Origin: Catenuloplanes sp. NPDC051500
GTDB lineage: Bacteria; Actinomycetota; Actinomycetes; Mycobacteriales; Micromonosporaceae
DNA: 64,000 nt
NCBI RefSeq assembly: GCF_044454585.1
Contig: NZ_JBITDX010000004.1
Span: 240,766-304,765, forward strand
Direction: 5' to 3'
The notes under the pieces were generated by a model. It was not told the origin of the DNA and ran no database searches. It saw nothing but the letters and a program-made list of their open reading frames with translations. The stretch's first letter is position 1; every line of letters begins with the position of its first letter. The translations under genes and the position numbers were made by a program. Positions 11,833 to 55,391 of the stretch are shown piece by piece.

Positions 11833-11842
11833 GCTTTCGGCC

Positions 11843-12574: not shown

Positions 12575-13179
12575 CCAAGCTGCTGCTTGCCACGCGGAAC
12601 GCGAAGAAGCTCACCGAGCTGCAGAACATCCTGGACGCCGCGCTCGGCGCCAGCCGGATCCAGCTGGTCGGGCTGGACGCGGTCCCGGAGTACCCCGAGG
12701 TGCCCGAGTCCGGTCTGACGTTCGGCGAGAACGCGTTGATCAAGGCGCGTGAGGGTGTGCGGCACACCGGCCTGCCCACGGTCGCGGACGACTCCGGCCT
12801 GGCCGTGGACGCGCTCTCCGGCATGCCCGGCGTGTTCAGCGCACGCTGGTCCGGCACGCACGGCGATGACCGGGCCAACCTCGACCTGGTGCTCGCCCAG
12901 ACCTCGGACGTACCCGAGCAGCACCGGGGCGCCGCGTTCGTCTGCGCGGCCGCGCTGGTCCTGCCCGGCGGCAAGGAGCACCTGGTCGACGGCCGGATGA
13001 CCGGCCGGCTGCTGCGCGCGCCGCGCGGCGAGGGCGGCTTCGGCTACGACCCGGTCTTCGTGGCCGAGGGGCAGCAGAAGACGAACGCGGAGCTGACCCC
13101 GGCGGAGAAGAACGCGATCAGCCACCGCGGCAAGGCGTTCCGCGCGCTGGCGAAGGTCATCGCGAAGGAACTCACCTGA
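12571..13179 (+). CDS. rdgB: non-canonical purine NTP pyrophosphatase (RdgB/HAM1)
   Basis: [14 protein letters not shown]...GFGYDPVF motifs. ATGA overlap with the rph stop. Confidence 0.9.
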
Positions 13180-15470: not shown

Positions 15471-16110
15471 TTCTCTGGGGTTGGCTCGGCAGCCAGTGGC
15501 GGATCAGGACGGTGAGGTCGTCAGTGGTCATCGGCGGTCCGAGGTCGCCGGTGGCAGGGGAGGCGCGCAGGCCGTCGATGAGAAGCTGCAGGTAGCGGGC
15601 GTGTCGGCCGCCGTGGTGCGCGACCTCGCTGATCATGGTGAGCAGCAGCGGGATGTCCTCGGCGGTCACGTCCGGCCGCAGTGATCCCTCGGCGTGGGCG
15701 CGGGCGATCAGCCGCCGGACGACCGGGAAGATGCGGTCCCGGATCCGGTCGAAGTGGCGCGCGCCGAAGTCCACGCTGAGCGCGATGTCGCGCACGCCGC
15801 GGTCGGTGGCGTGGATCTCGGCCGCACGGGTCAGGAAGCGGACCAGCCCGTCCCACCCGGTCGGCGCGGACAGCGCGGACTCGATCAACGCGACGTGCTC
15901 CTCCAGTTGCTCGTCGAGCGCGACCGCTGCCAGCGCCTCCTTGGACGGGAACCGCCGGTAGACCGTGCCGACGCCCACCCCGGCGTGATGCGCCACGTCG
16001 TCGAGCGTGGCGGACAGCCCGCGCGCGGCGAAGACCTCGCGTGCGGCCTCGATGATGCGCTGCCGGTTGGCCTGCGCGTCCCGCCGCAGCGGCCGGTCGG
16101 GCTCGATCAT
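15466..16110 (-). CDS. TetR-family transcriptional regulator
   Basis: HTH RQRIIEAAREVFAARGLSATLDDVAHHAGVGVGTVYRRFPSKEAL. Start assigned to Met-29 (MIEPDRP). Divergent from the MFS pump. Confidence 0.85.
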   Translation of the reverse strand: MIEPDRPLRRDAQANRQRIIEAAREVFAARGLSATLDDVAHHAGVGVGTVYRRFPSKEALAAVALDEQLEEHVALIESALSAPTGWDGLVRFLTRAAEIHATDRGVRDIALSVDFGARHFDRIRDRIFPVVRRLIARAHAEGSLRPDVTAEDIPLLLTMISEVAHHGGRHARYLQLLIDGLRASPATGDLGPPMTTDDLTVLIRHWLPSQPQRS

Positions 16111-16125
16111 GCTGTTCACCCTAAC

Positions 16126-16189
16126 AAGCGGAGGCATCATCTCCGATTGTTGTGATGCGATCGACAAAATGGAGACAGCATCTCCGCTT
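16126..16189. promoter_or_regulatory. putative TetR operator pair in the divergent TetR/MFS intergenic region
   Basis: Two GGAG-N7-CTCC palindromes (ggaggcatcatctcc and ggagacagcatctcc), flanked by the inverted repeat AAGCGGAG...CTCCGCTT. Confidence 0.45.
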
Positions 16190-16232
16190 AGCACCTACGG
16201 TCGCAGACGTTCAGTGACGTATTCGACCTGGG

Positions 16233-17603
16233 GTGATGATGAGAGACGGACGATGGTGGGCGCTCGCGGTGCTCGCCACAGGGCAGCTGATGGTGGCGCT
16301 CGACGCGACGGTCGTGAACATCGCGCTTCCGGCCATGCAGCGTGATCTCGGCTTCTCCGACGCCGGGCGGCAGTGGGTGGTGACCGGGTACGGTCTCGCG
16401 TTCGGCAGTCTGCTGCTGCTCGGCGGGCGGCTCTCCGACGCGCTCGGCCGGAAGCGGATGCTCCTGATCGGCTTCGCCGGATTCGCCGCCGCATCCGCGC
16501 TCGGCGGCGCCGCCACCGGCATCGAGGTGCTGATCGTGGCGCGGGTGCTGCAGGGCGTGTTCGCCGCGACGCTGGCGCCTGCCGCACTCTCGTTGCTGTC
16601 GGTCACCTTCACCGACCCGAAAGAGCGGGGTAAGGCGTTCGGGATCTTCGGTGCGGTCACCGGTTCCGGCACCGCGGTGGGGTTGCTGCTCGGCGGCGCG
16701 CTCACCGAGTACGCGTCCTGGCGCTGGTGCCTCTACGTCAACCTGATCTTCGCGGCCGTGGGGATCGCCGGGGCGTTGCTCAAGCTGCGCGACGAGCCGG
16801 TTCGCCGTGATCCCCGCGAGCGGACCGACTGGATCGGCGTCCTCGCCGCAGTGCTCGGCCTGGTCGCACTGGTCTACGGACTGGGCGAGAAATCCTACGG
16901 CTTCGTCGCCGCGGGCCTGCTTGTCCTCGCCGCCTTCGTGGTGATCGAGCGCCGTGCCGCGAACCCACTGCTGCCGCTGCGCGTGGTGCTCGACCGCAAC
17001 CGCGGCGGCGCCTACCTCTCGGTCGGCATCGCCGGCGCCGGCATGTTCGGCATGTTCCTGTTCGTCACGTACTACCTGGTCGGCACGCTCGGCTTCTCGT
17101 CGATCCGCACAGGTGTCGCCTTCCTCCCGCTGATCGCCGGCATCATGGCCTCCGCCGTCATCAGCGGCCAGCGGCTGACACCCAGGTTCGGCCCGCGCCC
17201 GGTGGTCACGGCAGGCGCGCTGATCGCCGCCGCCGGTCTGATCTACCTGACTCGGCTCGGCCCGGACTCGACCTATGTCACAGGCGTGCTTCCCGGCATG
17301 GTGGTCTTCGGGCTCGGCATGGGCATGATCTTCTCGCCCACCCAGAACGCGGCCACCGCGGGCGTGGACGAGCGGGACGCGGGGGTCGCCTCCGCCATGA
17401 TCAACACGGCGCAGCAGATCGGCGGTGCGGCCGGGACCGCGCTGCTCACCTCGGTCGCGGTCTCGGCGGTGGACGGCTACCGCACGGTCTTCCTGTGGTC
17501 GGCCGGCTTCTTCCTGATCAGTGCGGTCATCGCGGCGGTGACGTTCCGGAGCGGCCCGCTGAGGCTCCGGCCGGCGGGCGTACCTGTGGAGATCCCGGGC
17601 TGA
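16233..17603 (+). CDS. MFS transporter, DHA2 (14-TMS drug:H+ antiporter) family
   Basis: LAVLATGQLMVALDATVVNIALPAMQRDLGFS...GRLSDALGRKRMLLIG. Confidence 0.85.
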   Translation: MMMRDGRWWALAVLATGQLMVALDATVVNIALPAMQRDLGFSDAGRQWVVTGYGLAFGSLLLLGGRLSDALGRKRMLLIGFAGFAAASALGGAATGIEVLIVARVLQGVFAATLAPAALSLLSVTFTDPKERGKAFGIFGAVTGSGTAVGLLLGGALTEYASWRWCLYVNLIFAAVGIAGALLKLRDEPVRRDPRERTDWIGVLAAVLGLVALVYGLGEKSYGFVAAGLLVLAAFVVIERRAANPLLPLRVVLDRNRGGAYLSVGIAGAGMFGMFLFVTYYLVGTLGFSSIRTGVAFLPLIAGIMASAVISGQRLTPRFGPRPVVTAGALIAAAGLIYLTRLGPDSTYVTGVLPGMVVFGLGMGMIFSPTQNAATAGVDERDAGVASAMINTAQQIGGAAGTALLTSVAVSAVDGYRTVFLWSAGFFLISAVIAAVTFRSGPLRLRPAGVPVEIPG

Positions 17604-17747
17604 TCTGGCAATTCTCACAAGGTCGTCTCCGCCACCACGATTTTCGCATGAGGCTGTCCGCCGGGTCGATCATGGATGGTTGAGTCGGCGTCCAGTTGGT
17701 CTCTGCAGTGGAATGCCGTCTGGCACACTTGCTGCGGAGGTGTCGTG

Positions 17748-18503
17748 ATGGCGTCGGACAATACGGCAGGTGGGCCCGACAAGGCGCCGAACTGGGTGGT
17801 GCGCGTAATGACCGGGGTGGGCGTCACCGCCGCGCTGGCCGTCCTGGGATTGGTTGCCGACCTCCTGGGAATCGTCACTTTCGCCACAGGTAAGTCGGGC
17901 CCACAGCTCGTCGCTCCGGCACCCTCGACCGCGGCGAGTGCGCCCGCCTCCGCAGACCCTCCGGCGCCTTCGCTCACCACCGGCACACCCACGGCGATCG
18001 GCGGCTCGGCTCTCGAAGGACCGGAACCGAATGTCGATACAGAGCCCGAGACCGCTTATCTGACTGATCTTGAGCTGCTCAACCGCGCGTCGGACGTCTC
18101 CGTCGATGAAGTGGATATCGGCGGAGATTCTTACGGCCATAGCGTCGTCTACCGGTGCTCTACTTTTTGCAATACCCCCAAGGGGGTTGTCGAGGTGAAT
18201 CTCGGTCGCCGTTATACGCAATTCGAGGCGACCGTCGGTGTGTTGGACGACGCCGATGACTCCGATCAGGTCGGTTACTTCGAGATCTTCGTCGATGGGG
18301 CGTCAGTGAAAACGGTATCGGCAACGCTCGGAAAGCCGCAGTCGATCAAGCTTGAGTTGCCGTCGGATGCTGTTCGCCTGAAGCTGCTGGCGTACCGTAC
18401 CGATACTGTGGAAAACCCTCTTCTGGCAGGTGCCAACGTTGCGGGAGGGCGCTCAAACGGCCTTCCGGAGCTGGCCTGGGGCAATCCTCGGCTGTCGAAT
18501 TAG
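17748..18503 (+). CDS. membrane-anchored protein with a C-terminal NPCBM/NEW2-like putative carbohydrate-binding domain
   Basis: N-terminal TM helix (VVRVMTGVGVTAALAVLGLVADLLGIV), an Ala/Pro/Ser linker, and C-terminal AYLTDLELL...GGDSYGHSVVY...VGYFEIFVDG. The domain assignment is tentative. Confidence 0.55.
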   Translation: MASDNTAGGPDKAPNWVVRVMTGVGVTAALAVLGLVADLLGIVTFATGKSGPQLVAPAPSTAASAPASADPPAPSLTTGTPTAIGGSALEGPEPNVDTEPETAYLTDLELLNRASDVSVDEVDIGGDSYGHSVVYRCSTFCNTPKGVVEVNLGRRYTQFEATVGVLDDADDSDQVGYFEIFVDGASVKTVSATLGKPQSIKLELPSDAVRLKLLAYRTDTVENPLLAGANVAGGRSNGLPELAWGNPRLSN

Positions 18504-28640: not shown

Positions 28641-29474
28641 GTGACCGACGCATTCAGAAACGACGATGCGGATGTTGAGGAGCGGAAGCTCCGGTTGCGG
28701 GCCGCCCTGGACGATCTGCGGGCCGGCCGCCTCCAACCCGGCGTCGACGTAGCGGCCCCGGGCGAGACGCCCGCGGAGACGTTCGGTGAGGCCGCGGACG
28801 GTCAGGTGCGTGCGGCCGCGAGCGCGGGCCGTCTCGGCCTGCTGGAGATCGACGCCGTCCTGATGCGCCGTGACCTCGACGAACTCGGCACGCTCTGCGC
28901 CTCCGCGATCACCGGCGCGCTGCGCGGGCAGCGTGACGCCGACCCGCTCGCGGGCTCGACGCCGGACCTGGGCGCGCTCGGCGACATGCTGCAGGGCGTG
29001 CAGGCCGAGGGCATGCGCACGATGGCCCGCATCGAGCAGGCGCTCGGCGCGGTCATCGCGGATGTCGGCCCGCGCACCGGCATGGCCGGCGACCCGCGCG
29101 CCGCCGGCCTGGACGATGTGCTCAGCGCGACCGTGGCGGGCCTGCGTGCGGCCGGAGCGGTCACACCTGCGGAAACCGAGCGTCGCGGCCTCGGCGGCGA
29201 CGGCGCGGTGGCGGCAGTTATCGGATCCGGCGGCGTGATCGGGCTGGAGTTAAGCCCGCAACTCTCCCGTGCGCAGTCGCACGAACTCGCGGCGGCCATC
29301 GTGCAGGCCGTGAACGCGGCGCTCACCGAGCCACCGCCGGACACCGCCGCACCTGCCGCCGACCTGACCGGCCTCTCGCGCCGCATGGAAGAGCTGCGCG
29401 ACGCGAGCCTGACGCAGATGACCGCCTACTCGACCGCACTCCGATCGATCATGAACCGAATCGGTGAGCCGTAG
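28641..29474 (+). CDS. tandem YbaB/EbfC-like domain protein
   Basis: Two repeats with the YbaB-like pattern G.V.V.V..G.L..L.ID...L..D.E.L..L...A.N.A (residues around 55-105 and 200-245). GTG start. Confidence 0.55.
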   Translation: MTDAFRNDDADVEERKLRLRAALDDLRAGRLQPGVDVAAPGETPAETFGEAADGQVRAAASAGRLGLLEIDAVLMRRDLDELGTLCASAITGALRGQRDADPLAGSTPDLGALGDMLQGVQAEGMRTMARIEQALGAVIADVGPRTGMAGDPRAAGLDDVLSATVAGLRAAGAVTPAETERRGLGGDGAVAAVIGSGGVIGLELSPQLSRAQSHELAAAIVQAVNAALTEPPPDTAAPAADLTGLSRRMEELRDASLTQMTAYSTALRSIMNRIGEP

Positions 29475-29482
29475 GAGGACTC

Positions 29483-29807
29483 ATGCAGACGTTCCAGGTG
29501 GACCCGGACGGCATGCGCGGTTCCGGCGAAGGCATCCAGACAGCTGTCGGAAACCTCGACGACGCGCTGACCTCATTCGAGAACGAACTGGCCGGGTACG
29601 GCGAACCGTGGGGCGCCGACGACCTCGGCAGCATGCCTGGCCATCGAGATCGCGCAGGCCATCGCGACCGCGGTGGCGACGTTCGGCGCGTCGCTGCTGG
29701 AGATCCCCATCTTCCGCATGCTGACCAAGCTGGTGCTGGACCAGATCTCCGGTTTCGTCGATCCAGGTTCGGACCGCTGGAAAACGGCGTTTCCGCTCAT
29801 TACGTGA
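29483..29807 (+). pseudogene. EspC/WXG100-like small secreted-protein gene with an apparent +1 frame disruption near 29625-29640
   Basis: Frame 1 (MQTFQVDPDGMRGSGEGIQTAVGNLDDALTSFENELAGYGEPWGADDLGS) becomes Arg-rich nonsense after about residue 50. The protein-like continuation (LAIEIAQAIATAVATFGASLLEIPIFRMLTKLVLDQISGFVDPGSDRWKTAFPLIT*) is in the next frame and has no start codon of its own. Combined length is about 108 aa. Confidence 0.45.
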
Positions 29808-29818
29808 TTGGTGTCGAG

Positions 29819-30223
29819 ATGCGCGATTCAATGTCCTTCTACCGCACGTCGGACGGCTTCTTGACGTTTCGGTCGGACACCGGGTTCTTCAAAGATCTCG
29901 GCTCCTGGATGACCAGCGACATCCAGAGCTATGCGCCGGAGTGCCTGGAGTTCCTGGCGATCCTGGAGGATGTCCGCGCCGGGCGGCGGGACACCGAGTC
30001 GATCGAGGGAAATGCGTATCAGGCGATCGTGACCGGCGACGCCGTGCGTGTGCAGAACATGTTCGTCGAGTCGGGGGAGGACTACACCTTTCAGGAGGCC
30101 CACTCGGTGATCATCGACTACTGGAAGTGGCTGACGCCCGAAGCGGAGGATCGCTCCGCGCAGATCGCGGCGTGGACGGCGGAGTTTGGGCGGGAGCATC
30201 CGTGTCTCGGGCATCTCGGATGA
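29819..30223 (+). CDS. hypothetical protein (134 aa)
   Basis: MRDSMSFYRTSDGFLTF...IIDYWKWLTPEAEDRSAQIAAWTAEFGREHP has protein-like composition (F/Y/W/K-rich, low Arg). It is the 3' part of track ORF 29483..30223. Confidence 0.5.
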   Translation: MRDSMSFYRTSDGFLTFRSDTGFFKDLGSWMTSDIQSYAPECLEFLAILEDVRAGRRDTESIEGNAYQAIVTGDAVRVQNMFVESGEDYTFQEAHSVIIDYWKWLTPEAEDRSAQIAAWTAEFGREHPCLGHLG

Positions 30224-30301: not shown

Positions 30302-30949
30302 ATGGGCGGATTCATCGATGCCGCGCTGGGTTTTCCGGCGGTGTTGTTCAGCTTCCTGCTCGTAGTGGTGGTCGGGTACTGGCTGTTGGTCATCGTCGGC
30401 GGCGCTGATGTCGACGGGCTGGACGGCGACGGCGGTGAGGCCGGTGAGGTCGGCGGGATTTCCGGCGCGCTGGCCTGGCTTGGCCTCGGCGGCGTACCCG
30501 TGACGGTCATCCTGTCGCTTCTGGTGGCCTTCGCCTGGTTCGTGAGTCTGGCGGGCACTGTGGCACTCGGCACCACCGGCCTGAACGGCGGCCTCATGAT
30601 CGCGTTGTCCGTGGGGGTGCTGGTCGTGGCGCTTGTGGTCGCGTTCGGGCTCACCCGGGTGCTGGCCGGCGTGCTGTCGCGGATCATGCCGATCGGGCCG
30701 CAGCCGTCGCGCGGGGACTTCATGGGCGCCACCTGCGTGATCCGGACGGGGTCGGTGACGGCCACGTTCGGCCAGGCCGAGGTGCATGCGGCGGACGGCT
30801 CGTCCTCGATCATCCAGGTGCGGCAGCCTGGTGCCGAGGTTTTCCGGGCCGGGTCGAAAGCCATCATCTACGACTTCGACACCGTCGGCGAATTCTTCTG
30901 GGTCATGCCGGTCGACGCGGTTCCCGGCATTACCGAACACACCGCGTAA
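30302..30949 (+). CDS. NfeD-like membrane protein (partner of flotillin/SPFH)
   Basis: Multiple TM helices and a C-terminal OB-fold-like segment (GATCVIRTGSVTATFGQAEVHAADGSSSIIQVRQ). RBS GGGGAGG. Lies immediately upstream of flotillin. Confidence 0.75.
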   Translation: MGGFIDAALGFPAVLFSFLLVVVVGYWLLVIVGGADVDGLDGDGGEAGEVGGISGALAWLGLGGVPVTVILSLLVAFAWFVSLAGTVALGTTGLNGGLMIALSVGVLVVALVVAFGLTRVLAGVLSRIMPIGPQPSRGDFMGATCVIRTGSVTATFGQAEVHAADGSSSIIQVRQPGAEVFRAGSKAIIYDFDTVGEFFWVMPVDAVPGITEHTA

Positions 30950-30994
30950 AGCTTTTATCACCCCCACCTTTCTCGTACCGAAAAGGGATTCTCT

Positions 30995-33007
30995 ATGGAT
31001 GTGATCACCACGGGACTCGGTGTGCTGCTCGCCGTTGTCCTGCTCGTCCTCATCGGCATGGTCTTTCTGGTCAGCCGGCTCTTCCGGAAGGTAGAGCAGG
31101 GTAAGGCGCTGATCGTCTCGAAGGTGCGGAAGGTGGATGTCACGTTCACCGGCGCCGTGGTGATGCCGGTGCTGCACAAGGCCGAGATCATGGACATCTC
31201 GGTGAAGACGATCGAGATCGACCGGGCCGGGCACGAGGGCCTGATCTGCCGGGACAACATCCGCGCGGACATCCGGATCACGTTCTTCGTCCGGGTGAAC
31301 AAGACCACCGAGGACGTCATCAAGGTCGCCCAGGCCATCGGTACGGCCCGCGCCTCCGATCAGAACACGCTGCAGGAGTTGTTCAGCGCGAAGTTCTCCG
31401 AGGCGCTGAAGACGGTCGGCAAGCAGCTGGACTTCGTCGACCTGTACACGAAGCGCGACGAGTTCCGTGACCAGATCATCGCGGTGATCGGCACCGACCT
31501 CAACGGGTACAGCCTCGAGGACGCGGCGATCGACTTCCTGGAGCAGACGCCTGTCTCCCGCCTCGACCCGAAGAACATTCTCGACGCGCAGGGCATCCGG
31601 AAGATCACCGAGCTGACCGCGGTCGAGGCCGTGAAGACGAACGAGTTCCAGCGCACCGAGGAGAAGGAGATCACCCGGCAGAACGTGGACGCCCGGGAGA
31701 CCATCCTCGAGCTGCAGCGCCGCCAGGCCGAGGCGGAGATCCGCCAGAAGCGCGAGATCGAGACGATGCGCGCCCGCGAGGAGGCCGAGACCGCCAAGGT
31801 GTACGCGGAGGAGCGGCTGCGCTCCCGGACCGCGGATCTGCGCACCGAGGAGCAGCTGGGCATCCAGTCGGAGAACCAGGCCCGGGAGATCGCGGTCGCG
31901 GCGAAGAACCGCGAGCGGGTCATCGCGATCGAGACCGAGCGGATCGAGAAGGACCGCATGCTTGAGGTCATCTCCCGGCAGCGCGAGACCGAGCTCTCCA
32001 CGATCTCCAAGGACAAGGAGGTCGAGGGCGAGCGGCGGGCCATCGCCGAGGTTGTCAGGGAGCGGATCGCGGTCGAGAAGACCGTGGCCGAGCAGGAGGA
32101 GAACATCAAGCGGCTGCGCGTGGTCGAGGAGGCCGAGCGCACCCGCCAGGCGGTGATCATCAACGCCGAGGCCGAGGCGCAGGAGGTCCTGGTCAAGAAC
32201 ATCAAGGCGGCGGAGGCGTCCGAGGCGGCCGCGAAGTTCAAGGCCCGCGAGGAGCTGGTGCTGGCCGAGGCCCGGCAGCAGGCCGCCGAGCTGGACACCC
32301 GCGCCCGGATCCGGCTCGCCGAGGCGGCCCAGGCCACCGCGGCCGCCGAGGGTCTGGCCGAGGTCCAGGTCCGCGAGCGCAACGCGGAGGCGATCGAGAA
32401 GGTCGGCCGCGCCGAGGCGATCGTCGACCGGGAGAAGGCCCTGGCCGGCGCGGACGCGCTGCGCGAGAAGCTGAAGGGCGAGGCCGAGGGTCTCACCGAG
32501 AAGGCCGCCGCGATGGCCGCGCTGACCGACGCGTCCCGCGACCACGAGGAGTACCGGCTGCGTCTTGAGGCGGAGAAGGAGATCCGGCTGGCCGGCATCG
32601 ACGTGCACCGGCAGGTGGCGGAGGCACAGGCGATGGTGGTCGCGGCAGGTCTGGAGAAGGCAAACATCGACATCGTCGGCGGGGACAGCGTCTTCTTCGA
32701 CAAGCTGCTCGGCTCGATCACGCTCGGCAAGAGCATCGACGGGTTCATGGCGAATTCCGAGGTGGCTCAGTCGCTCGTCGCGCCGTACGCGAACGGCAAC
32801 GGCAACCTCCCCGCGGACCTGGGCAAACTGCTCGGCTCGATGTCCACGGCCGACGTGTCGAACCTGACGCTGTCCGCGTTCCTGATCCAGCAGATGAAGT
32901 CCGCGAGCAGCGCTGACGAGGCGAAACTGCGTGAGTTGCTGGAGAGCGCGCGCCGCCTCGGCGTGGCGGACAAGTCCGTCGCCGAGCTGACCCCGGCCGC
33001 GAAGTGA
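30995..33007 (+). CDS. flotillin-family SPFH/band-7 protein
   Basis: N-terminal TM segment, an SPFH domain, and a long EA-rich coiled-coil (flotillin domain). 670 aa. Confidence 0.85.
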   Translation: MDVITTGLGVLLAVVLLVLIGMVFLVSRLFRKVEQGKALIVSKVRKVDVTFTGAVVMPVLHKAEIMDISVKTIEIDRAGHEGLICRDNIRADIRITFFVRVNKTTEDVIKVAQAIGTARASDQNTLQELFSAKFSEALKTVGKQLDFVDLYTKRDEFRDQIIAVIGTDLNGYSLEDAAIDFLEQTPVSRLDPKNILDAQGIRKITELTAVEAVKTNEFQRTEEKEITRQNVDARETILELQRRQAEAEIRQKREIETMRAREEAETAKVYAEERLRSRTADLRTEEQLGIQSENQAREIAVAAKNRERVIAIETERIEKDRMLEVISRQRETELSTISKDKEVEGERRAIAEVVRERIAVEKTVAEQEENIKRLRVVEEAERTRQAVIINAEAEAQEVLVKNIKAAEASEAAAKFKAREELVLAEARQQAAELDTRARIRLAEAAQATAAAEGLAEVQVRERNAEAIEKVGRAEAIVDREKALAGADALREKLKGEAEGLTEKAAAMAALTDASRDHEEYRLRLEAEKEIRLAGIDVHRQVAEAQAMVVAAGLEKANIDIVGGDSVFFDKLLGSITLGKSIDGFMANSEVAQSLVAPYANGNGNLPADLGKLLGSMSTADVSNLTLSAFLIQQMKSASSADEAKLRELLESARRLGVADKSVAELTPAAK

Positions 33008-36000
33008 CCGAGAACCTCGACGCCGGCACCTATGAGGTGCTCCGCGGCCGGCTCGCCGAGCAGGCCGCGGAGTTGGCCCGCCGCGCCGAACGTCTCAACG
33101 TCAAGCGCGCGGAGACGTTCGGCGGCGCGGAACTGCGCCTGCTCGGCACCGAGCGGATCCGGACCGAGAACAACTGCGTGCCGCGCGACATCGTGTCCGT
33201 CGGCGGGCTGATGCTCTTCGGCTACAACGTCTTCATCGGCCTGAAGTCGGAGACGTCGATCGACGACGTCTTCGCGTTGCACGGCTTCGTCCGTACCCCC
33301 GATGCCTTCAGGTTTGATGAGCCGGGCCCGGTGCCGGGGTTGCTCGACGACGAGCGGTTCCAGCGGGACTTCGCGGAGCTGTACAAGTACTACCGGCAGA
33401 CGAAGCTGATGCAGCTGCGCCGGATGGAGGGGCGGCTGCTGGCCGTCTTCCAGACCGGCGCCCGGGCGGACGATCTGCGCGTGCTGCGCTGGCAGACCGC
33501 GCCGGACGGCACCGTCTCCTATCTGGACAACCGGGGCGAGCGCGAGCACGTGTTCCCGCCCGCGCACGACTTCGAGTGGACCGAGACCGGGCGTGACCAG
33601 CACGTTCTCGGCCGGCACCCGCACATCTCGATCGAGGACCAGGTCTTCGTCGAGACGGTCGGCGGCACGCTGACCATCAAGGTGGAGAACAACACCGAGG
33701 ACGGCGAGGGGATCTACGGCGAGCCGGTCGACGAGCCGCTGCAGAGCCTCGCGGACGCGGAGATCGCCTACGCCCGGGTCGGCACGCTGATCCTGCTCAA
33801 GATCCTGCCGTACAAGGAGACGGTCCACAGGTACCTGGTCTTCAACATCCGGACCCGGACCGTGGTCCGGCTGGACGGCATCGGGCAGGCCTGCCAGCGC
33901 CTGCCCGAGGACCAGGGCCTGATCTTCCCGGGCGGTTACTACCTGGACACCGGCATCGTGAAGACGTTCGACACGGACGTGGCGGGGCTGGAGTTCGAGA
34001 AGGTCATCCGGTCCCCGAACGGCGAGGACGTGCTCTACGTCTTCCACGCCCGGGACGAGGGCCGTTACCTGCTGCTGCCGTACAACCTGATCCGCAAGGA
34101 GGTCGCGAACCCGTTCACCTGCCACGGGTACTCGCTCTTCGACGACGGCACGCTCATCGTCTTCCGCGCGGTGTCCGACGAGCCGACCCGGGTGCACCCG
34201 GTGCAGGTGTGGCAGACGCCGTTCCTGTCCGACACGTTCGCGGCCGCCCAGCCGGCCGGCGAGGGCACGCTGGCCCGGATCGGCAACGCGGAGCTGGTCC
34301 GCGGCATCTCCGAGGCGGTCTCGGTCGCCCGGATGGTCGGCGAGATGAGCCCGTCGCAGGCCGTCTACGAGGGACTTATCGCGGCCTGCACACGCGCGTT
34401 CGACAACTACCACTGGCTGGGCGAGGCCGAGCTCGGCGACCTGCGCACGCCGCTGTCCGAGGTGCGGGCCACCGCAGCGCAGGTGCTCGACGAATTCGAG
34501 AAGGTCCAGGCGCTCACCGCGCAGGCCGCGACCGCGCTCGGCACCGCGTCGTCCGAGGTCAACGCCATGATCCGGCGATCCCGGGGTGAGACGCCGACCT
34601 CCACGTCGGAGTGGGTCACACGACTGGCCGCGCTGCGTGCGGCACAGGGACGGCTCGGCTCGCTCCGTGAGGTGCGCTATGTGGATCTCGCGGCGCTGGA
34701 GACGGTGTTGAACGATCTCCAGGCGGAGACCGGATCGTTCGCCAAACGGGCCGTCACCTTCCTGAGCGACGCCGACGCGTTCACGTCGTACCACGTCACT
34801 GTCGCCGAACTTGAGGCCGACGCGGGCACCATCGAGACGGTGGCGTCCTCGGCCGCGGTCCAGGAGCGGATCGACACGCAGGCCACCGGCCTGCAGACGG
34901 TCACCGAGGTGGTCGGCTCGCTGGACATCGCGGACGCGACCGTCCGGGTCGGAATCCTGGAGCGGGTCGGCGAGGTCCTCGGCGGCCTCAACCGGGCCCG
35001 TGCGGTCCTTGACGGCCGCCGCCGCGCGCTGCTCGACCGGGAGGGGCGGGCCGAGTTCGCCGCCGAGTTCGCGCTGCTCGGGGCGGCAATCACCGGCGCG
35101 CTCGCGGTCGCGGACACGCCTGAGACGTGCGACGAGCAGCTCGGCCGGCTGATGCTTCAGCTGGAGAACCTGGAGTCCCGGTTCTCCGACTTCGACGACT
35201 TCCTGGCCCAGCTGTCGACCAAGCGCACCGACGTGTACGAGGCGTTCTCGTCCCGCAAGCAGGCGCTGCTCGACGACCGCTCACGCCGCGCGGACCGGCT
35301 CGTCGACTCCGCCGAGCGGATCCTCGGCAGCGTCGGCCGCCGGGTCGCCACGCTGAGCACGCTCGACGAGGTCAACACGTACTTCGCCACCGACCCGATG
35401 GTCGCCAAGCTGCACTCCGTCGCGGACGAGCTGCGCACCCTCGGCGACAGCGTGCGCGCGGAGGAACTGGCCGGCCGGGTCAAGGCCGCGCGCCAGGAGG
35501 CCGGCCGGTCGCTTCGTGACCGCCTCGACCTGTTCGCGGACGGTGGCGGCACGATCCGGCTCGGCAAGCACCGGTTCGCTGTCAACACCCAGGCCGTGGA
35601 CCTGACCATGGTTCCGCACGACGGCGAGATGACGTTCGCGGTCACTGCCACCGACTTCAGGTCCCCGGTCCGCGACGCCGCGTTCGCGGCCACCCGGCCG
35701 TTCTGGGAGCAGCTGCTCGCCTCCGAGTCCGCGGACGTCTACCGGGCCGAACACCTGGCCGCCACGGTGCTCGCGGCGCGGCCGGCCGACGCCACCGCGG
35801 ACCTCAAGGAGATCGTCCGCCGGGAAGCCGAGACCAGATACGACGAGGGGTACGAGCGGGGCGTCCACGACGTCGACGCCGCGCTGATCCTCGACGCGCT
35901 GCTGCGCCTCCAGGCCGGCGCCGGGCTGCTGCGCTTTCCCGCGGGCGTACGCGCGGCGGCTCAGCTCTTCTGGGCCTTCGGGGTCTCCGAGCCGGACCGG

Positions 36001-37881
36001 GTGGTCTGGACGCGGCGGGCCTCGTCGCTGATCCGCGCCCGCGCCGTGTTCGGTACCGCCGGCCCGGCGCTGCGTGACCTGGCGTCCACGCTCGGCGCCG
36101 CGGCAACTGTCTTCCTCGGCGAGGCCGGGCTGCCGGTCGACGAGCCGGAGCAGGTGGGGGAGTACCTGGTCGAGGAGCTGGCGGGTCAGCCGTTCGGGTT
36201 CGCGACAAGCGCGGATGCTCGTACCCTGCTCGATCGTTTCCGCCGTGCGCTAGGTGGCGCCGCGGCGCCCTCCGGACGCGACTTCGACGAGGATCTGCGT
36301 GCCCTCGACGACCTCGCGGCGCGACACCAGCTGGCATCCGCGTGGCTCGGCGCCTACCTGGCCTCCACCGGGGCCGAGGCGCCGCCTGAGCTGCCCGAGG
36401 CCGTCGCGTTGCTGCTGACCCCGGACCTGCCCAGGCATGACTCGTCCGCGGCGCTCTCGCTCGATGTGAGCGGGCTTCTCGGCGCACACTCGCGGATCAA
36501 GGACCGGACGCTCACCGTGCGGCTGGACGAGTTCCTGCCGCGCACCCGCCGGTTCCGCGAGGAGCGGATGCCCGCCTACCGCGCGTACCAGCGGCAGCGC
36601 AACGCGCTCGCCACGGCCGAGCGGGCCCGGCTGCGCCTGGACGAGTTCACGCCGCGGGTGATGAGCGCGTTCGTCCGCAACCGGCTGCTCGACGAGGTCT
36701 ACCTGCCGCTCATCGGCGACAACCTGGCCCGCCAGCTCGGCGCGGCCGGCGATGCGAAGCGCACCGACCAGATGGGCCTGCTGCTGCTCATCTCGCCGCC
36801 CGGCTACGGCAAAACCACTCTGATGGAGTACGTGGCGAGCCGGCTCGGCCTGGTCTTCGTCAAGGTCAACGGCCCGGCGCTGGGACACGGCGTGACCTCG
36901 CTCGACCCGGCCGAAGCGCCGAACGCGACAGCGCGCCAGGAGGTGGAGAAGATCTCGTTCGCCCTGGAGATGGGCAACAACGTGCTGCTCTACCTGGACG
37001 ACATCCAGCACACCAACCCGGAGCTGCTGCAGAAGTTCATCTCGCTGTGCGACGCGCAACGGCGGATGGAGGGCGTCTGGGACGGTGCCACCCGCACCTA
37101 CGACCTGCGCGGTAAGCGGTTCGCGGTGTGCATGGCCGGCAACCCGTACACCGAGACCGGCACCCGTTTCCGCATCCCGGACATGCTCGCCAACCGGGCC
37201 GACGTGTGGAACCTCGGCGACGTGCTGTCCGGCCGTGATGATCTGTTTGCTCTCAGTTACATCGAGAACGCGCTGACGTCGAACGCGGTGCTGGCGCCGC
37301 TCTCCACCCGTGAGCGCGGCGACATCGAGCTGCTGGTCAGGCTGGCCCGGGGCGACGAGACCGCGCAGGCGGACAAGCTCACCCACCCGTACTCCGCGGT
37401 CGAACTTGACGGCATCCTCGCGGTGCTCCGCAAGCTGCTCCGGGTCCAGGAGGTCGTGCTCACTGTCAACCGCGCCTACATCGCGTCCGCCGCGCAGGCG
37501 GAGGAGTCGCGCACCGAGCCGCCGTTCAAGCTGCAGGGCTCGTACCGCAACATGAACAAACTCGCGGAACGCGTGGTGCCGGTGATGAACGACGCCGAAC
37601 TCGAACTGGCGATCGACGACCACTACCTCGGCGAGGCGCAGACGCTCACCGGCGGCGCGGAGGCCAACCTGCTGAAGCTCGCCGCGCTGCGCGGGCGTCT
37701 CACCGAGGCGCAGGCCGCACGCTGGGAAGAGGTCAAGGCCGGGTTCCTCCGGCAGGCCGCGCTGGGCGGCGCCGGGGACGACCCGATGAGCCGTGCGGTC
37801 GGCGCGGTCGGGCTGCTCGCGGACCGGGTGTCGGAAGCCATCGACCGCGCCGCGGCGGCGACGCGGTCGACGACATCCTGA
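33004..37881 (+). CDS. giant conserved protein (1625 aa) with a C-terminal AAA+ (AAA_5/MoxR-like) ATPase domain
   Basis: Walker A LLLISPPGYGKTTL, Walker B NVLLYLDDIQ, and a sensor-like CMAGNP.TETG. The GTG overlaps the flotillin stop (GTGA). Confidence 0.8.
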   Translation: MTENLDAGTYEVLRGRLAEQAAELARRAERLNVKRAETFGGAELRLLGTERIRTENNCVPRDIVSVGGLMLFGYNVFIGLKSETSIDDVFALHGFVRTPDAFRFDEPGPVPGLLDDERFQRDFAELYKYYRQTKLMQLRRMEGRLLAVFQTGARADDLRVLRWQTAPDGTVSYLDNRGEREHVFPPAHDFEWTETGRDQHVLGRHPHISIEDQVFVETVGGTLTIKVENNTEDGEGIYGEPVDEPLQSLADAEIAYARVGTLILLKILPYKETVHRYLVFNIRTRTVVRLDGIGQACQRLPEDQGLIFPGGYYLDTGIVKTFDTDVAGLEFEKVIRSPNGEDVLYVFHARDEGRYLLLPYNLIRKEVANPFTCHGYSLFDDGTLIVFRAVSDEPTRVHPVQVWQTPFLSDTFAAAQPAGEGTLARIGNAELVRGISEAVSVARMVGEMSPSQAVYEGLIAACTRAFDNYHWLGEAELGDLRTPLSEVRATAAQVLDEFEKVQALTAQAATALGTASSEVNAMIRRSRGETPTSTSEWVTRLAALRAAQGRLGSLREVRYVDLAALETVLNDLQAETGSFAKRAVTFLSDADAFTSYHVTVAELEADAGTIETVASSAAVQERIDTQATGLQTVTEVVGSLDIADATVRVGILERVGEVLGGLNRARAVLDGRRRALLDREGRAEFAAEFALLGAAITGALAVADTPETCDEQLGRLMLQLENLESRFSDFDDFLAQLSTKRTDVYEAFSSRKQALLDDRSRRADRLVDSAERILGSVGRRVATLSTLDEVNTYFATDPMVAKLHSVADELRTLGDSVRAEELAGRVKAARQEAGRSLRDRLDLFADGGGTIRLGKHRFAVNTQAVDLTMVPHDGEMTFAVTATDFRSPVRDAAFAATRPFWEQLLASESADVYRAEHLAATVLAARPADATADLKEIVRREAETRYDEGYERGVHDVDAALILDALLRLQAGAGLLRFPAGVRAAAQLFWAFGVSEPDRVVWTRRASSLIRARAVFGTAGPALRDLASTLGAAATVFLGEAGLPVDEPEQVGEYLVEELAGQPFGFATSADARTLLDRFRRALGGAAAPSGRDFDEDLRALDDLAARHQLASAWLGAYLASTGAEAPPELPEAVALLLTPDLPRHDSSAALSLDVSGLLGAHSRIKDRTLTVRLDEFLPRTRRFREERMPAYRAYQRQRNALATAERARLRLDEFTPRVMSAFVRNRLLDEVYLPLIGDNLARQLGAAGDAKRTDQMGLLLLISPPGYGKTTLMEYVASRLGLVFVKVNGPALGHGVTSLDPAEAPNATARQEVEKISFALEMGNNVLLYLDDIQHTNPELLQKFISLCDAQRRMEGVWDGATRTYDLRGKRFAVCMAGNPYTETGTRFRIPDMLANRADVWNLGDVLSGRDDLFALSYIENALTSNAVLAPLSTRERGDIELLVRLARGDETAQADKLTHPYSAVELDGILAVLRKLLRVQEVVLTVNRAYIASAAQAEESRTEPPFKLQGSYRNMNKLAERVVPVMNDAELELAIDDHYLGEAQTLTGGAEANLLKLAALRGRLTEAQAARWEEVKAGFLRQAALGGAGDDPMSRAVGAVGLLADRVSEAIDRAAAATRSTTS

Positions 37882-38374: not shown

Positions 38375-39121
38375 GTGGAAATTCTTCTGATGACCGCCAT
38401 CGCCGGCGAGCGCGCCCGACGCGTCCTTCCCGGGCTCGACCTCCTGCCGCACACGCTCCGGGTCGCCCCGCGAGACGTGTCCGCGCTGATCAGCGGTCCG
38501 AACCCGGACATCGTGCTTGTCGACGGCGCGCACGGACTCGGCACCCGCTCCGGCCTCGCCGAGGCCCGCGACACCTGCCGCCTGCTGCGCGCCACAGGCC
38601 TCTCCAGCCCGCTCCTCGCGGTCGTCGACGAAGCCGGCCTCGCCGCCGTCTCCGCCGAGTGGGCGCTCGACGATGTGGTGCTCGCCACGGCCGGCCCCGC
38701 CGAGATCGAGGCCCGGCTCCGGCTCGTCACCGCCCGCCGCACCGCCCAGGCGGCCGGCGCGAACGGCCTCATCACCGCCGGTGAGCTGGTCATCGACCCC
38801 GCCACCTACGCCGCGAAGCTCAAGGCCGCGCCGCTCGACCTCACCTACAAGGAGTTCGAGCTGCTGAAATTCCTCGCGCAGCACCCCGGGCGTGTCTTCA
38901 CGCGCGACCAGCTGCTCCGCGAGGTCTGGGGCTACGACTACTTCGGCGGCCACCGCACCGTCGACGTCCACGTCCGCCGCCTCCGCGCGAAGCTCGGCTC
39001 CGAGTACGAGTCGATGATCGGCACCGTGCGCCAGGTCGGCTACAAGCTGGTCCTCCCGCCCCGCCCGGAGTCGGCTCAGGCCTTCGCCACGGCTGCGGAA
39101 CTGGAGACCATGTTCGCCTGA
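38375..39121 (+). CDS. glnR: atypical OmpR-family response regulator, GlnR-like
   Basis: The receiver lacks the DD pair and the conserved Lys ([12 protein letters not shown]...; ...[19 protein letters not shown]) but keeps LPHTLRVAP and PDIVLVD. C-terminal winged helix ([50 protein letters not shown]). Confidence 0.6.
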
Positions 39122-50377: not shown

Positions 50378-50519
50378 GCTTCGGAGCCGCGACCGCTCCC
50401 GGATGCAAAAGATCGGCACAAAAAGAGTGCGCTACCGCACACCGTTTTTAGACCCGCCAGAGCCGCGCCTGGGCGACCACCGCGACGCGGGGTCTGGGGG
50501 TCGCTTCCAGGAAACTACC

Positions 50520-50601
50520 GTGGGCCGGACGTTGCACCATGCGAACCACCCGATCATCGTCACCGGCGACCCCACTGCCGGGACGTTTGGCCAGTTCAAG
50601 G
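50520..50601. repeat. direct repeat copy A (about 82 bp)
   Basis: gtgggccggacgttgcaccatgcgaaccacccgatcatcgtcaccggcgaccccactgccgggacgtttggccagttcaagg; about 85% identical to 51946..52027. Confidence 0.8.
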
Positions 50602-50662
50602 GGTACTCGACCAGCCCGATAGCCTGATTCAGACCCACCCTCAGCCGCCTCGGAGTGCTGCG

Positions 50663-51229
50663 CTACCAGGCCGGGGGACCAAGATGGCGTCGTACTTCAG
50701 CCGCGAATCTAGGTACGCCGGTGCGTTGCAGAAGGACGAGGACCTCCGGCACGGTGTTCGGCGCACGTCGGTAGGACGCGGCTTGGTGACGGAGCACGTC
50801 CATGGTCAAGCCGGGGTAGAGATCGAGTTGGTCGAGGAGGAAATCGTCGGGGTGGATGGCTGCGATGTCGTAGGGCTTGAGGGCCGGCTCGGGGAAGTCG
50901 CTGAGGTTGAAGGTGACGATGACTTCGGCGTTGGCGCGTACGGCGGCAGCCAGAACGTGTCGGTCCTTCGGATGGTTCGTCATACCGTCGACAAGTGACT
51001 CATAGCCAGTGACCAGGGCGTCGGGGAATGACCGGCTCATCTGGCCAAGCCGCCGATCAACCCGATCCGGTGGTAGCCCGCGCTTGGTGAGGTTGCGACG
51101 TAGTTCGGTGAAGACGTCGGCCGACCAGAGCGGCCGGTATGCGGAGGCTTCGGCGAGGCGAAGCAGGGTGTCGCACAGGTATGCCGGGTAGAGCACGCAG
51201 GTGTCAAGGAACGCGGGAAACGCCACCAT
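50663..51229 (-). CDS. PIN-domain toxin (VapC-like, about 190 aa)
   Basis: FLDTCVLYP at the N-terminus (first acidic residue), DRHVLAAA, TFNLSDF. Confidence 0.75.
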   Translation of the reverse strand: MVAFPAFLDTCVLYPAYLCDTLLRLAEASAYRPLWSADVFTELRRNLTKRGLPPDRVDRRLGQMSRSFPDALVTGYESLVDGMTNHPKDRHVLAAAVRANAEVIVTFNLSDFPEPALKPYDIAAIHPDDFLLDQLDLYPGLTMDVLRHQAASYRRAPNTVPEVLVLLQRTGVPRFAAEVRRHLGPPAW

Positions 51230-51238
51230 GACCGGCTG

Positions 51239-51709
51239 TCACCTCGACGGCGGTGAGTCGAGGGTGATCTCGTACAGGTCGTCGTCCTCGGCGTCGGCTG
51301 CCATCTGGTCCAGGGCGCGGCGGCGTTCGGTGCGGGTGCGTTCGGAGTAGTCGAGGATGTCCCGCAGCAGGACTCGTCGGTGCCGGCCGCGCAGGCTGTG
51401 CGGGATCTCGCCGTCGGTCAGCAGGCGGACCAGCGTAGGTCGTGAGATGTTGAGCAGGTCAGCGGCCTCTTGGGTGGTCAGCATCGTGTTGTGCGGGGCG
51501 ATCGAGATGGCCATGCCCTGGGACAGGGCACCGACGACGTCGCGCAGCAGTTCGTAGAGTTCGGCCGGGATGTCGAGCTGCGAACCGTCCGGGCCCACCA
51601 GCTTCGCTCGGGCGGGGGCCTCGGCGGCGGCCATACCCCGCGCGAAGCGCACCAGGTCGGCGGGGTTTTCAGGTGGCAGAACGGTCCGTTCACGCAGGGT
51701 GCTCGACAT
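51239..51709 (-). CDS. HTH_17 (excisionase/MerR-like) DNA-binding antitoxin partner
   Basis: LTTQEAADLLNISRPTLVRLLTDGEIP...GRHRRVLLRDILDY. A 9-bp gap separates it from the PIN gene. Confidence 0.7.
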   Translation of the reverse strand: MSSTLRERTVLPPENPADLVRFARGMAAAEAPARAKLVGPDGSQLDIPAELYELLRDVVGALSQGMAISIAPHNTMLTTQEAADLLNISRPTLVRLLTDGEIPHSLRGRHRRVLLRDILDYSERTRTERRRALDQMAADAEDDDLYEITLDSPPSR

Positions 51710-51945
51710 GAAGCCAGCATACCGCTATTCGAAAAATCCGAAAGCCGCTACGGCTTGGTGAAGCCCAGCGTGCGATAGCCGGGCATTCGGCGCTGCAGCG
51801 AGACAGCCAGGATCGGCGTCGCCGGGTCGTGCCGGCCACGATGGCAGATCGCCACGATCCCCGACGAACGCAGATCCACCTTCCGGAGCTCCACCAGCAG
51901 CCGACAACAGCGAATCGCCGGGCCGCGGTTCGCATGCAAGATCAA

Positions 51946-52027
51946 AGTGGGCCGGACGTTGCACCATGCGAACCACGCCACCATCGTCCCGGGCCGCCCA
52001 CTATCGGGACGTTTGACCAGCTCAAGC
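51946..52027. repeat. direct repeat copy B
   Basis: gtgggccggacgttgcaccatgcgaaccacgccaccatcgtcccgggccgcccactatcgggacgtttgaccagctcaagcg. Confidence 0.8.
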
Positions 52028-52125
52028 GTTAGACGCTAGCGCTCGGGGCCGTTGACCCCAACAACAGCGGGCTCACCCTCCATGCCGATAGTGGTACCGT
52101 ATTCAGTACCACTTCGGGAGGCATC

Positions 52126-52383
52126 ATGACGTCTGCGATCAGTGCCAGCGAGGCGCGCAAGTCCCTATTTCCACTCATCGAGCGTGTCAACGAGGACCAC
52201 ACCCCGATCGAGATCGTTTCCAAGCGGGGTAACGCCGTCCTGGTGAGCAAGGAGGACTGGGACTCGATCATGGAGACCAACTACCTGCTCCGATCGCCCG
52301 CCAACGCCAAGCGCCTCGTCGAGAGCGTCGAGCAGTGGCGAGCCGGCCGAGCCACCGAACGCGAGTTCGGCCCCGAGGAGTGA
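52126..52383 (+). CDS. yefM: YefM/Phd-family antitoxin
   Basis: SASEARKSLFPLIERVNEDHTPIEIVSKRGNAVLVSKEDWDSIMETNYLLRSP. Confidence 0.85.
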   Translation: MTSAISASEARKSLFPLIERVNEDHTPIEIVSKRGNAVLVSKEDWDSIMETNYLLRSPANAKRLVESVEQWRAGRATEREFGPEE

Positions 52384-52640
52384 AACTCAGCTGGACCGAC
52401 CACGCCTGGGACGACTACCTGTACTGGCAGACCCAGGACCGCAAAACCCTCAAACGCATCAACGCGCTGATCGCCGACATCAAACGCGACCCCGACGGCC
52501 AGGGCATCGGCAAGCCGGAGATCCTCCGAAACAACCTCGCCGGACTCCGGTCCCGTCGCATCGATGACGAGCACCGCATGGTGTACGCCGTCGAGCCCAG
52601 CGAGATCTCCATCATCTCCTGCCGATACCACTACGAGTAG
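52380..52640 (+). CDS. yoeB: YoeB/Txe-family toxin (mRNA interferase)
   Basis: LSWTDHAWDDYLYWQ...RINALIADIKRDP...GIGKPE...HRMVYAV...CRYHY. GTGA overlap with yefM. Confidence 0.85.
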   Translation: MKLSWTDHAWDDYLYWQTQDRKTLKRINALIADIKRDPDGQGIGKPEILRNNLAGLRSRRIDDEHRMVYAVEPSEISIISCRYHYE

Positions 52641-52661
52641 GTCAGGCCTTATCGTTGCTGC

Positions 52662-53799: not shown

Positions 53800-53856
53800 A
53801 CCACCAACCTATGAGCTGCCGGAGTCAGACCGGCACGGGGTGCCTCGTTCGGGTGG

Positions 53857-55086: not shown

Positions 55087-55186
55087 GTACCCATTTACCG
55101 CATTCAGCCCGGCACAACGCCCGAGCGACCCGCGGTTCGTGCAATGCCACATTCAACCAGCACGAACACGCAGGCCATGCGCAGAG

Positions 55187-55261: not shown

Positions 55262-55391
55262 CAAAGCGAAGAACCGGTCACAACCGTCCTGACCGACACT
55301 CCTGTTGCTGCTCGGGATCATAGTTGACCGGAGCTTTTGCGATGTGGCGTAGGTGGCCGATCCGGCTGCGGCAGGCAGGGCGGCGCCGAGG

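Follow-up and report, generated by a model that had tools for sequence, protein, structure and literature searches.

A 64,000-nucleotide stretch of the genome of Catenuloplanes sp. NPDC051500 (NCBI RefSeq assembly GCF_044454585.1, contig NZ_JBITDX010000004.1, positions 240,766 to 304,765 of the forward strand; hereafter the window, with a guanine-cytosine (GC) content of about 70%) carries three consecutive genes coding for a small membrane protein, a flotillin-family protein with an SPFH domain, and a giant AAA+ protein labelled 'DNA repair ATPase' in databases. A protein recorded for Catenuloplanes sp. NPDC051500 matches the giant protein with 100% identity. The three genes form a module kept together across many bacterial phyla, and their linkage suggests a function other than that named in the database label.

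The first gene of the trio (30302-30949, + strand), defined by its open reading frame (ORF) and translation, encodes a 215-amino-acid-long membrane protein of the YqiJ/YuaF type (NfeD2-like). A spacer of 45 bp (30950-30994) separates it from the second gene (30995-33007, + strand), whose 670-long product is assigned as a YqiK-like SPFH protein from its ORF, a Pfam Band_7 match and BLASTP homology to YqiK. The third gene (33004-37881, + strand) encodes the 1625-long protein, placed in the DUF3686 family of AAA+ proteins by Pfam. Its GTG start codon (33004-33006) is interlaced with the TGA stop codon of the SPFH gene (33005-33007) to form a GTGA overlap at positions 33004-33007. A preliminary description of this DNA had placed the same three ORFs here, and direct reading of the sequence confirms both the 45-bp gap that it placed between NfeD and flotillin genes and the GTGA overlap of stop and start. 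GC at third codon positions is 0.88, 0.95 and 0.93 in the 215-, 670- and 1625-codon ORFs, values which in a genome of about 70% GC are those expected of true genes. The spacer contains the purine-rich sequence AAAAGGGA a few bases 5' of the ATG of the SPFH gene, a candidate ribosome-binding site. The GTG at 33004 is the earliest in-frame start following a stop, and a start at the next GTG (residue 12) would lose a conserved G.YE motif. The exact four-base overlap is found at 16 of 77 loci of the genome set described below (76 scanned loci and locus L002, applying a longest-ORF rule), the other loci having short gaps. The trio is plausibly a single transcription unit. No promoter-like site was found in a scan of the 28.5-38.5 kb region, where terminator-like sites are no commoner than in shuffled sequence, and an Rfam search of the whole window gives no match in the operon region.

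The 215-long protein has three hydrophobic segments predicted from hydropathy (approximately residues 1-40, 52-92 and 91-129), an acidic and glycine-rich loop, and a carboxyl-terminal β-rich domain with a conserved G..C.V..G.V...FGQAE motif. No Pfam model matches it even at an E-value of 10 or below, including NfeD (PF01957) and the YqiJ models, and no NCBIfam model does so. Pairwise BLASTP to E. coli YqiJ gives just a marginal hit in the transmembrane region (6e-4), hence the need for a family profile. A profile built from 27 family members aligns to YqiJ with an hhalign probability of 94.8% (E-value 4.8e-8) over 141 columns that include the carboxyl-terminal region. PF21001 (YqiJ_N) matches six of these 27 members, the window protein not being among them. 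The gene at the equivalent position of a Hymenobacter plasmid is annotated as coding for a 'DUF1449 family protein'. These homologies identify the 215-long protein, at the sequence level, as a three-transmembrane protein of the YqiJ/YuaF type. Hinderhofer et al. 2009 (PMC2636767) present YqiJ and YuaF as the NfeD2-type proteins that accompany SPFH2 proteins. The earlier label 'NfeD' thus has indirect support only, through profile homology to YqiJ, the NfeD2-type partner of YqiK, and finds no Pfam or NCBIfam match in the protein itself. In the window and at most related loci the SPFH gene is immediately preceded by the co-oriented YqiJ-like gene.

The SPFH protein has an amino-terminal membrane anchor (residues 1-33, hydropathy), a Band_7 domain (residues 32-216, E-value 2.6e-8) and, following it, a long helical region rich in Glu, Ala and Arg. 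It is homologous to E. coli YqiK with 29% identity over 455 residues (BLASTP, 7e-39) and is about 120 residues longer, the extra sequence falling at approximately residues 450-600. The Flot domain (PF15975) has no match at an E-value of 1 or below in the window protein or in its Hymenobacter orthologue, while E. coli YqiK, used as positive control, scores 6.4e-41. An alignment of 104 homologues linked to giant genes has a mean column identity of 0.6-0.78 between residues 31 and 570. One orthologue bears the NCBI name 'flotillin family protein'. Since there is no recognisable carboxyl-terminal Flot domain, we prefer 'YqiK-like SPFH' or 'flotillin-like' to the earlier designation 'flotillin', of which the Band_7 domain and the YqiK homology are upheld and a detectable Flot domain is not. 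The bulk of a YqiK-type protein is presumably cytoplasmic.

Pfam covers much more of the giant protein than its ATPase module. DUF3686 (PF12458) spans residues 23-470 with an E-value of 2e-220, matching all of profile positions 1-448 of 448, and DUF7902 (PF25472) spans residues 591-674 (nucleotides 34774-35025, E-value 1.4e-29). The statement of the preliminary description that the remaining 1400 or so residues lack recognisable domains is therefore wrong; as DUF3686 and DUF7902 are both domains of unknown function, 'no characterised domains' would be correct. The family is large, with more than 6900 giant homologues at 90% clustering, and 1411 clusters represented at 50% identity match the amino-terminal 1200 residues at E-values of 1e-3 or below. 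The architecture combining DUF7902 with a carboxyl-terminal AAA+ module, in proteins of about 1600-1900 residues, is listed for all but a few homologues, and the family alignment is collinear down to 31% identity.

Two AlphaFold2 models, of residues 1-720 and 681-1625, have mean predicted local distance difference test (pLDDT) scores of 87.6 and 87.7, respectively. The first supplies the prediction of amino-terminal structure called for in the preliminary description: a helix (residues 9-39, + strand like all parts of this gene) leads into a predicted β-propeller (residues ~45-404, nucleotides 33136-34215), and both together make up most of DUF3686. The Foldseek matches of the propeller in the PDB are all β-propellers, namely WD40 proteins, paraoxonase and prolyl oligopeptidase propellers, with E-values around 1e-5. 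Secondary structure in both models then defines a long helical and coiled-coil region (residues ~421-1225, nucleotides 34263-36678) that holds DUF7902 and a small β unit at residues ~850-888. This region also displays, far from the AAA+ module, a near-invariant GVHD.DA motif at residues 953-959 (nucleotides 35845-35889 code for residues 948-962); its G953, H955 and D958 never vary in a diverse set of 37 sequences reaching down to 31% identity. The motif may bind a metal or a ligand, or else contact the ATPase ring. After the single AAA+ module (residues ~1226-1450, nucleotides 36679-37353, from Pfam AAA/AAA_5 and the model), the protein ends with a region of modelled helices (residues ~1451-1625, nucleotides 37354-37878) bearing the family-specific invariant motif EPPFKLQGSYRNMNK, whose invariant columns are P1506, F1508, Q1511, G1512, S1513, Y1514, R1515 and M1517. 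A hydrophobic peak at residue 685 was considered as a membrane segment and rejected, as it lies in a confidently modelled helix with Q and S in the consensus of the diverse alignment. The giant protein is soluble, with no convincing membrane segment; both its partners are membrane proteins.

The AAA+ module lies where it had been noted at first, near residues 1250-1400, and the GYGKTT and LYLDD motifs cited for it are confirmed. Pfam AAA and AAA_5 match residues 1260-1383, AAA_5 with 25 bits. The Walker A motif SPPGYGKTT (residues 1264-1272; GYGKTT from residue 1267, nucleotides 36802-36819) is invariant in the 37 diverse sequences. Walker B is LYLDD from residue 1329 (nucleotides 36988-37002), with D1332 and D1333 invariant and followed by I-Q-H. 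Two further motifs, AGNPYTE and MLANRAD, are invariant or nearly so in these sequences down to 31% identity; their invariant residues N1380 and R1398 are by position a candidate sensor-1 and a candidate arginine finger, respectively. The nucleotide-binding motifs are intact and the module as a whole looks catalytically competent. Its Foldseek neighbours are the MoxR-type proteins CbbQ and NorQ, RuvB, dynein and Lon, with weak E-values around 1e-5 and target TM-scores of 0.47 for CbbQ and 0.42-0.55 for NorQ chains. A sequence search of the PDB gives generic AAA+ matches only (Rix7, VCP, proteasome), at E-values of 3e-4 or above.

The genomic context of the giant gene was surveyed in several sets of loci, scanned with F[KLR]LQGSYR[ND] or LQGSYR[ND]M as one of two search patterns. 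A genome scan yielded 80 best loci whose giant proteins are 53-74% identical to that of the window. They belong mostly to Actinomycetota, together with Myxococcus, Corallococcus and metagenome-assembled genomes (MAGs) labelled Deltaproteobacteria, Clostridia, Acidobacteriota and Thermoanaerobaculia. An SPFH gene is found directly upstream, on the same strand, at all 76 of these loci that have upstream DNA, and the only conserved genes around the giant gene are those of the trio itself. Because this sample is biased to close relatives, a second homologue search was started from a member with 30% identity and a metagenome scan from the most distant members. The second search reached Vibrio, Photobacterium, Reinekea, Hahella, Methylomarinum and others. 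The trio is present in the five contigs that were looked up, one from Sphaerisporangium and four distant ones including those of Vibrio hyugaensis and Methylomarinum vadi. Where a locus of the distant metagenome set extends more than 2.3 kb upstream of the giant gene, the SPFH gene is found there in 57 of 59 cases; where it extends more than 3.2 kb, a YqiJ-like homologue is found upstream in 52 of 55. Altogether the SPFH gene is directly upstream and co-oriented at 138 of 140 loci with enough upstream DNA, for giant proteins with identities ranging from about 30% to 96%. Clustering the full sample of 163 giant genes leaves 152 groups at a threshold of 90% identity and 79 groups at 70%.

The preliminary description had called the coupling of the two genes obligate-looking and had named, as the finding that would speak against it, a giant gene occurring mostly without a neighbouring flotillin. 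The survey gives the opposite result, a linkage that is near-obligate. Pairwise identities of giant and SPFH proteins are correlated (Spearman 0.88, 9453 pairs), as expected if the genes are inherited and transferred together; a common phylogeny would by itself produce a correlation too. The dependence is one-way, of the giant gene on the scaffold gene, since E. coli K-12 has the pair of SPFH and YqiJ genes without a giant gene.

Variations on the trio are seen at some loci. In some loci of Gammaproteobacteria type a small gene is inserted between the SPFH and giant genes (L085, positions 7243-7791; L087, positions 7625-7906), and this accounts for gaps of 400-900 bp between them at several metagenome loci. 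The intervening gene of Methylomarinum codes for a 182-long double zinc-ribbon protein. In an Actinoplanes MAG (L018, 7995-12794) two ORFs, 7995-8879 and 8967-12794, take the place of a single giant gene, whether through a frameshift or decay to a pseudogene or through faulty assembly. A gene for a PucR-type regulator (GGDEF_2 and HTH_30 domains), usually divergent, lies just upstream of the trio at 30 of the 80 genome loci, which are of Streptomyces type (L031, L035, L036, L038, L039 and 25 more); it has no homologue in the window and is a candidate lineage-specific regulator.

The distant loci connect the trio to PspA. Among the 46 with enough DNA, 17 have a PspA_IM30 gene directly upstream of the YqiJ-like gene, 16 have a CesT_Tir_1 or DUF2170 gene and 17 a divergent helix-turn-helix regulator gene. 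DUF350 and DUF4178 genes are at times found downstream of the trio. In Vibrio hyugaensis the trio is followed by PLDc_2 and TelA genes, and in plasmid pQBR103 it is preceded by genes for DUF2491, DUF350, DUF1190 and a protein of the glutathionylspermidine synthase family. The order on the Hymenobacter plasmid is Tir chaperone, PspA, DUF1449, hypothetical protein and 'DNA repair ATPase'. The association of these genes is already published at the gene-neighbourhood level (Ravi et al. 2024, mSystems, PMC11237479). In its account of the operon, that study joins a flotillin/YqiJ/AAA+ operon to the PspA network, with a CesT/Tir-PspA combination, a PLD gene in some Proteobacteria and 'abbreviated' operons that are more widely distributed, and gives Dokdonia donghaensis ANH61663.1 as an example neighbourhood. 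The architectures described there are those of the window, in the same order: a YqiJ/YuaF protein with three transmembrane segments, a protein with a transmembrane segment, band-7 domain and coiled coil, and a protein combining β-propeller, coiled coil and AAA+ module. The identity of the window trio with the Dokdonia operon relies on this matching architecture and on context. Our distant loci reproduce the accessory genes set out in the same account, namely CesT/Tir-PspA, PLD, DUF350, DUF4178 and the DUF2491/DUF1190/glutathionylspermidine synthase group. The window has no homologue of PspA, DUF2170, TelA or PLD in its 64 kb, and the lack of an adjacent PspA makes its trio an 'abbreviated' form of that operon. 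The operon account of Ravi et al. states that the ATPase occurs 'in some cases' with flotillin/YqiJ; the converse, an ATPase almost never found without an SPFH gene, is not reported in it. We found no experimental study of the giant ATPase or of the trio in the literature searched, where no paper mentions DUF3686 and none has both 'flotillin' and 'DNA repair ATPase'. A survey of SPFH proteins of Pseudomonas aeruginosa makes no mention of the ATPase.

The first two genes of the trio have counterparts in model bacteria. Both yqiJ-yqiK of E. coli and yuaF-yuaG (floT) of B. subtilis place a small multi-transmembrane protein with a carboxyl-terminal β domain upstream of an anchored coiled-coil SPFH protein (PMC2636767). 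Unlike the window, E. coli does not continue yqiJ-yqiK with a gene for a giant ATPase, and its YqiK also differs from the SPFH protein of the trio by a clear Flot domain and shorter length. The pairing of an SPFH scaffold with an AAA+ machine at the cytoplasmic membrane has precedents in HflK/C-FtsH and in QmcA/YbbK-YbbJ, which show how SPFH proteins can organise an ATPase. FtsH is a membrane-anchored AAA+ protease of the classic clade; the giant protein lacks both a protease domain and a convincing anchor, and its AAA+ module is not of the classic type. The SPFH domains of HflK/C are periplasmic and the HflK/C assembly encloses FtsH on that side of the membrane. The best structural neighbours of the giant AAA+ module are those of MoxR-type proteins (CbbQ, NorQ), RuvB and dynein-type motors, at a sequence identity of just 13-17%. 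In contrast to MoxR-type systems, the window trio has no gene for a VWA partner and its Walker B ends in Asp-Asp; the amino-terminal extension of about 1200 residues is unique to the giant family. Vps4 acting on ESCRT-III and NSF acting on SNAREs offer a functional analogy only, that of an ATPase which dismantles or recycles a polymeric scaffold bound to a membrane: no MIT or NSF-N domain is detected in the giant protein and its AAA+ clade is different.

We privilege the hypothesis, to which we give a probability of about 0.6, that the giant protein is a cytoplasmic ATPase acting on the flotillin scaffold of the trio in membrane maintenance or envelope stress. The SPFH protein and its YqiJ-like partner would assemble on the cytoplasmic face of the membrane, where the giant protein would dock through its propeller and helical region. 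An AAA+ ring would then spend ATP on putting together, taking apart or remodelling the scaffold, or proteins that it holds, in the setting of membrane maintenance or of a response to envelope stress. A flotillin-associated machine had been put forward in the preliminary description in preference to a DNA repair enzyme, and the linkage at 138 of 140 loci supports this choice, as does a match to RuvB that stays below threshold. A more specific and rather speculative version, drawn by analogy to the logic of Vps4 on ESCRT-III or of NSF on SNAREs, makes the giant protein a dedicated ATP-driven motor for the assembly and disassembly of bacterial SPFH scaffolds, in which the propeller and the helical arm would grip the divergent carboxyl-terminal region of this special YqiK-like subfamily. 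If true, the turnover of flotillin microdomains would be an active, energy-consuming process in the many bacteria that have the trio.

Several observations weigh against assigning the trio to an ATPase that works on a flotillin scaffold. Three metagenome loci (L110, L139 and L156), the sole exceptions in the sample, have a full-length giant gene and no SPFH or YqiJ-like gene within their 14-16 kb of DNA, so that the linkage of giant and SPFH genes is not absolute. A PAS/receiver histidine kinase is encoded upstream at L139 and a Cache-domain Ser/Thr kinase at L156; L110 has only 1.7 kb of upstream DNA, without any SPFH fragment. These loci could represent a variant wired to a different sensor. 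In the AAA+ module an aspartate occupies the usual site of the catalytic glutamate of Walker B (hhhhDE) and examination of the sequence by eye reveals no obvious aromatic pore-loop motif, so that a threading unfoldase mechanism is not assured. The clade of the module is ambiguous in Foldseek comparisons. Neither PspA nor CesT is encoded near the window trio or in the examined DNA of the 81 closest genome-derived loci (L002, L004-L083), which makes the PspA link an extrapolation for the window's lineage. We infer the physical association of the giant, SPFH and YqiJ-like proteins from gene linkage only, and ring formation, substrate and trigger are likewise inferred.

The frequent company of PspA suggests another division of roles, in which the ATPase would be a Vps4-like motor that disassembles or remodels PspA, a polymer of the ESCRT-III superfamily, and flotillin and YqiJ would merely provide the membrane platform. 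The PspA gene, usually with that of a CesT/Tir chaperone, is co-oriented with the trio at the 17 distant loci and on the Hymenobacter plasmid. The operon account of Ravi et al. (PMC11237479) envisages that abbreviated operons may use a PspA encoded elsewhere and likens other PspA-AAA+ associations to Snf7-Vps4. However, PspA is not beside the trio at about two thirds of the distant loci, nor in the flanks of the closest loci or in the window, in contrast to the SPFH gene, which is almost always present. Pfam detects no MIT-like domain in the giant protein, and the AAA+ module is nearer to the MoxR, RuvB and dynein types than to the classic Vps4 clade. We regard such a PspA motor as the less probable reading, with a minor though real chance of being correct. 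A role in quality control or extraction of membrane proteins, following the logic of HflK/C-FtsH without the protease domain and with clients presented by the SPFH enclosure, is more doubtful still. In its favour, the AAA+ module of the giant protein appears competent and the putative binding domains are large. HflK/C-FtsH is an established partnership of SPFH and AAA+ proteins, and FtsH has YbbK/QmcA as a further interactor (Hinderhofer et al. 2009, PMC2636767). Yet Pfam finds no protease or other catalytic domain, no aromatic pore loop is obvious, and the protein has no membrane anchor of its own. The geometry also differs, HflK/C enclosing FtsH on the periplasmic side and the bulk of the YqiK-type protein being most likely cytoplasmic.

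The patchy spread of the trio over phyla, with giant proteins 53-56% identical between Actinomycetota and Myxococcus or Acidobacteriota, its variable genomic context and some neighbours of defence type (RloB/AAA_21 at L002, Mrr_cat at L086, PLDc_2 and TelA in Vibrio, TerD on a Streptomyces plasmid) would suit an anti-phage or conflict system, with the two membrane proteins as sensors that set off the large ATPase and, in some variants, a PLD-type protein as effector. These neighbours are not conserved, and the core proteins, with 70% identity or more across actinomycete families, are unusually conserved for a conflict system. PADLOC gives for the three proteins only a match at the P-loop level (IetA, E-value 0.0025, 29 residues). 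Giant homologues are absent from 50,697 phage records, and only 13 plasmids among 72,556 records have one, most of these being megaplasmids or chromids. A defence role is thus very unlikely. The generic annotation as DNA repair ATPase, pointed out in the preliminary description, is indeed that of NCBI and UniRef homologue names, and the Pfam description of DUF3686 concurs with it. A repair enzyme whose adjacency to flotillin is incidental would also agree with the RuvB proteins among the Foldseek neighbours and with weak P-loop matches to RuvB_N (Pfam, E-value 4.8e-4) and to NCBIfam RuvB models (21 bits). The two NCBIfam scores, 21.0 bits where the cutoff is 282 and 19.7 bits where it is 299, fall far short, and the alignment is limited to residues 1251-1294, about 45 positions around Walker A. 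Pfam detects no DNA-binding or nuclease domain in the giant protein, the literature searched has no paper on DUF3686 or combining 'flotillin' with 'DNA repair ATPase', and a linkage to membrane proteins found at 138 of 140 loci is not incidental. We consider it hardly credible that the database label is right.

The surroundings of the trio in the window have other features. Two genes of the + strand lie just upstream (28641-30223). The product of the first, 277 residues long, has a weak YbaB/EbfC-like match of 24.3 bits, below the cutoff of 25.5, and that of the second, 246 residues long, has a sub-threshold UPF0231 match only. They are not kept beside the trio in other genera and for this reason are not counted in the module. 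A gene for a GlnR-type response regulator (38375-39121; GlnR_1st and Trans_reg_C domains) follows 493 bp downstream of the giant gene. In E. coli some 2 kb separate yqiJK from glnE, and in Sphaerisporangium a GlnE-like gene adjoins the trio; the proximity of GlnR or GlnE genes to the trio is probably a coincidence. Farther away, the stretch 50400-55300 has a lower GC content (0.65-0.67 versus about 0.71) and few ORFs with the codon bias usual in the host. It contains a PIN-domain gene (50663-51229, - strand) adjoining a gene for an HTH_17 excisionase-like protein (51239-51709, - strand) and ends near a tRNA gene (55187-55261, - strand), beside which two large ORFs (52765-53799 and 53857-55152, - strand) have no Pfam match. 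This stretch looks like an integrated element with a toxin-antitoxin pair. At positions 16001-18000 the adenine-thymine (AT) skew is -0.20, far off the values found elsewhere in the window.

The probable assignment of the giant protein to a flotillin-associated machine corrects a misleading 'DNA repair ATPase' label carried by thousands of database homologues. To the published gene neighbourhood the present analysis adds a counted one-way dependence of the ATPase gene on the SPFH gene (138 of 140 loci), a structure-based domain map and the recognition that the partner SPFH protein lacks a canonical Flot domain, all of which should aid the design of experiments. An ATPase that is nearly inseparable from a flotillin and its YqiJ partner provides a concrete handle on the way in which bacteria build flotillin scaffolds, renew them and connect them to stress responses.

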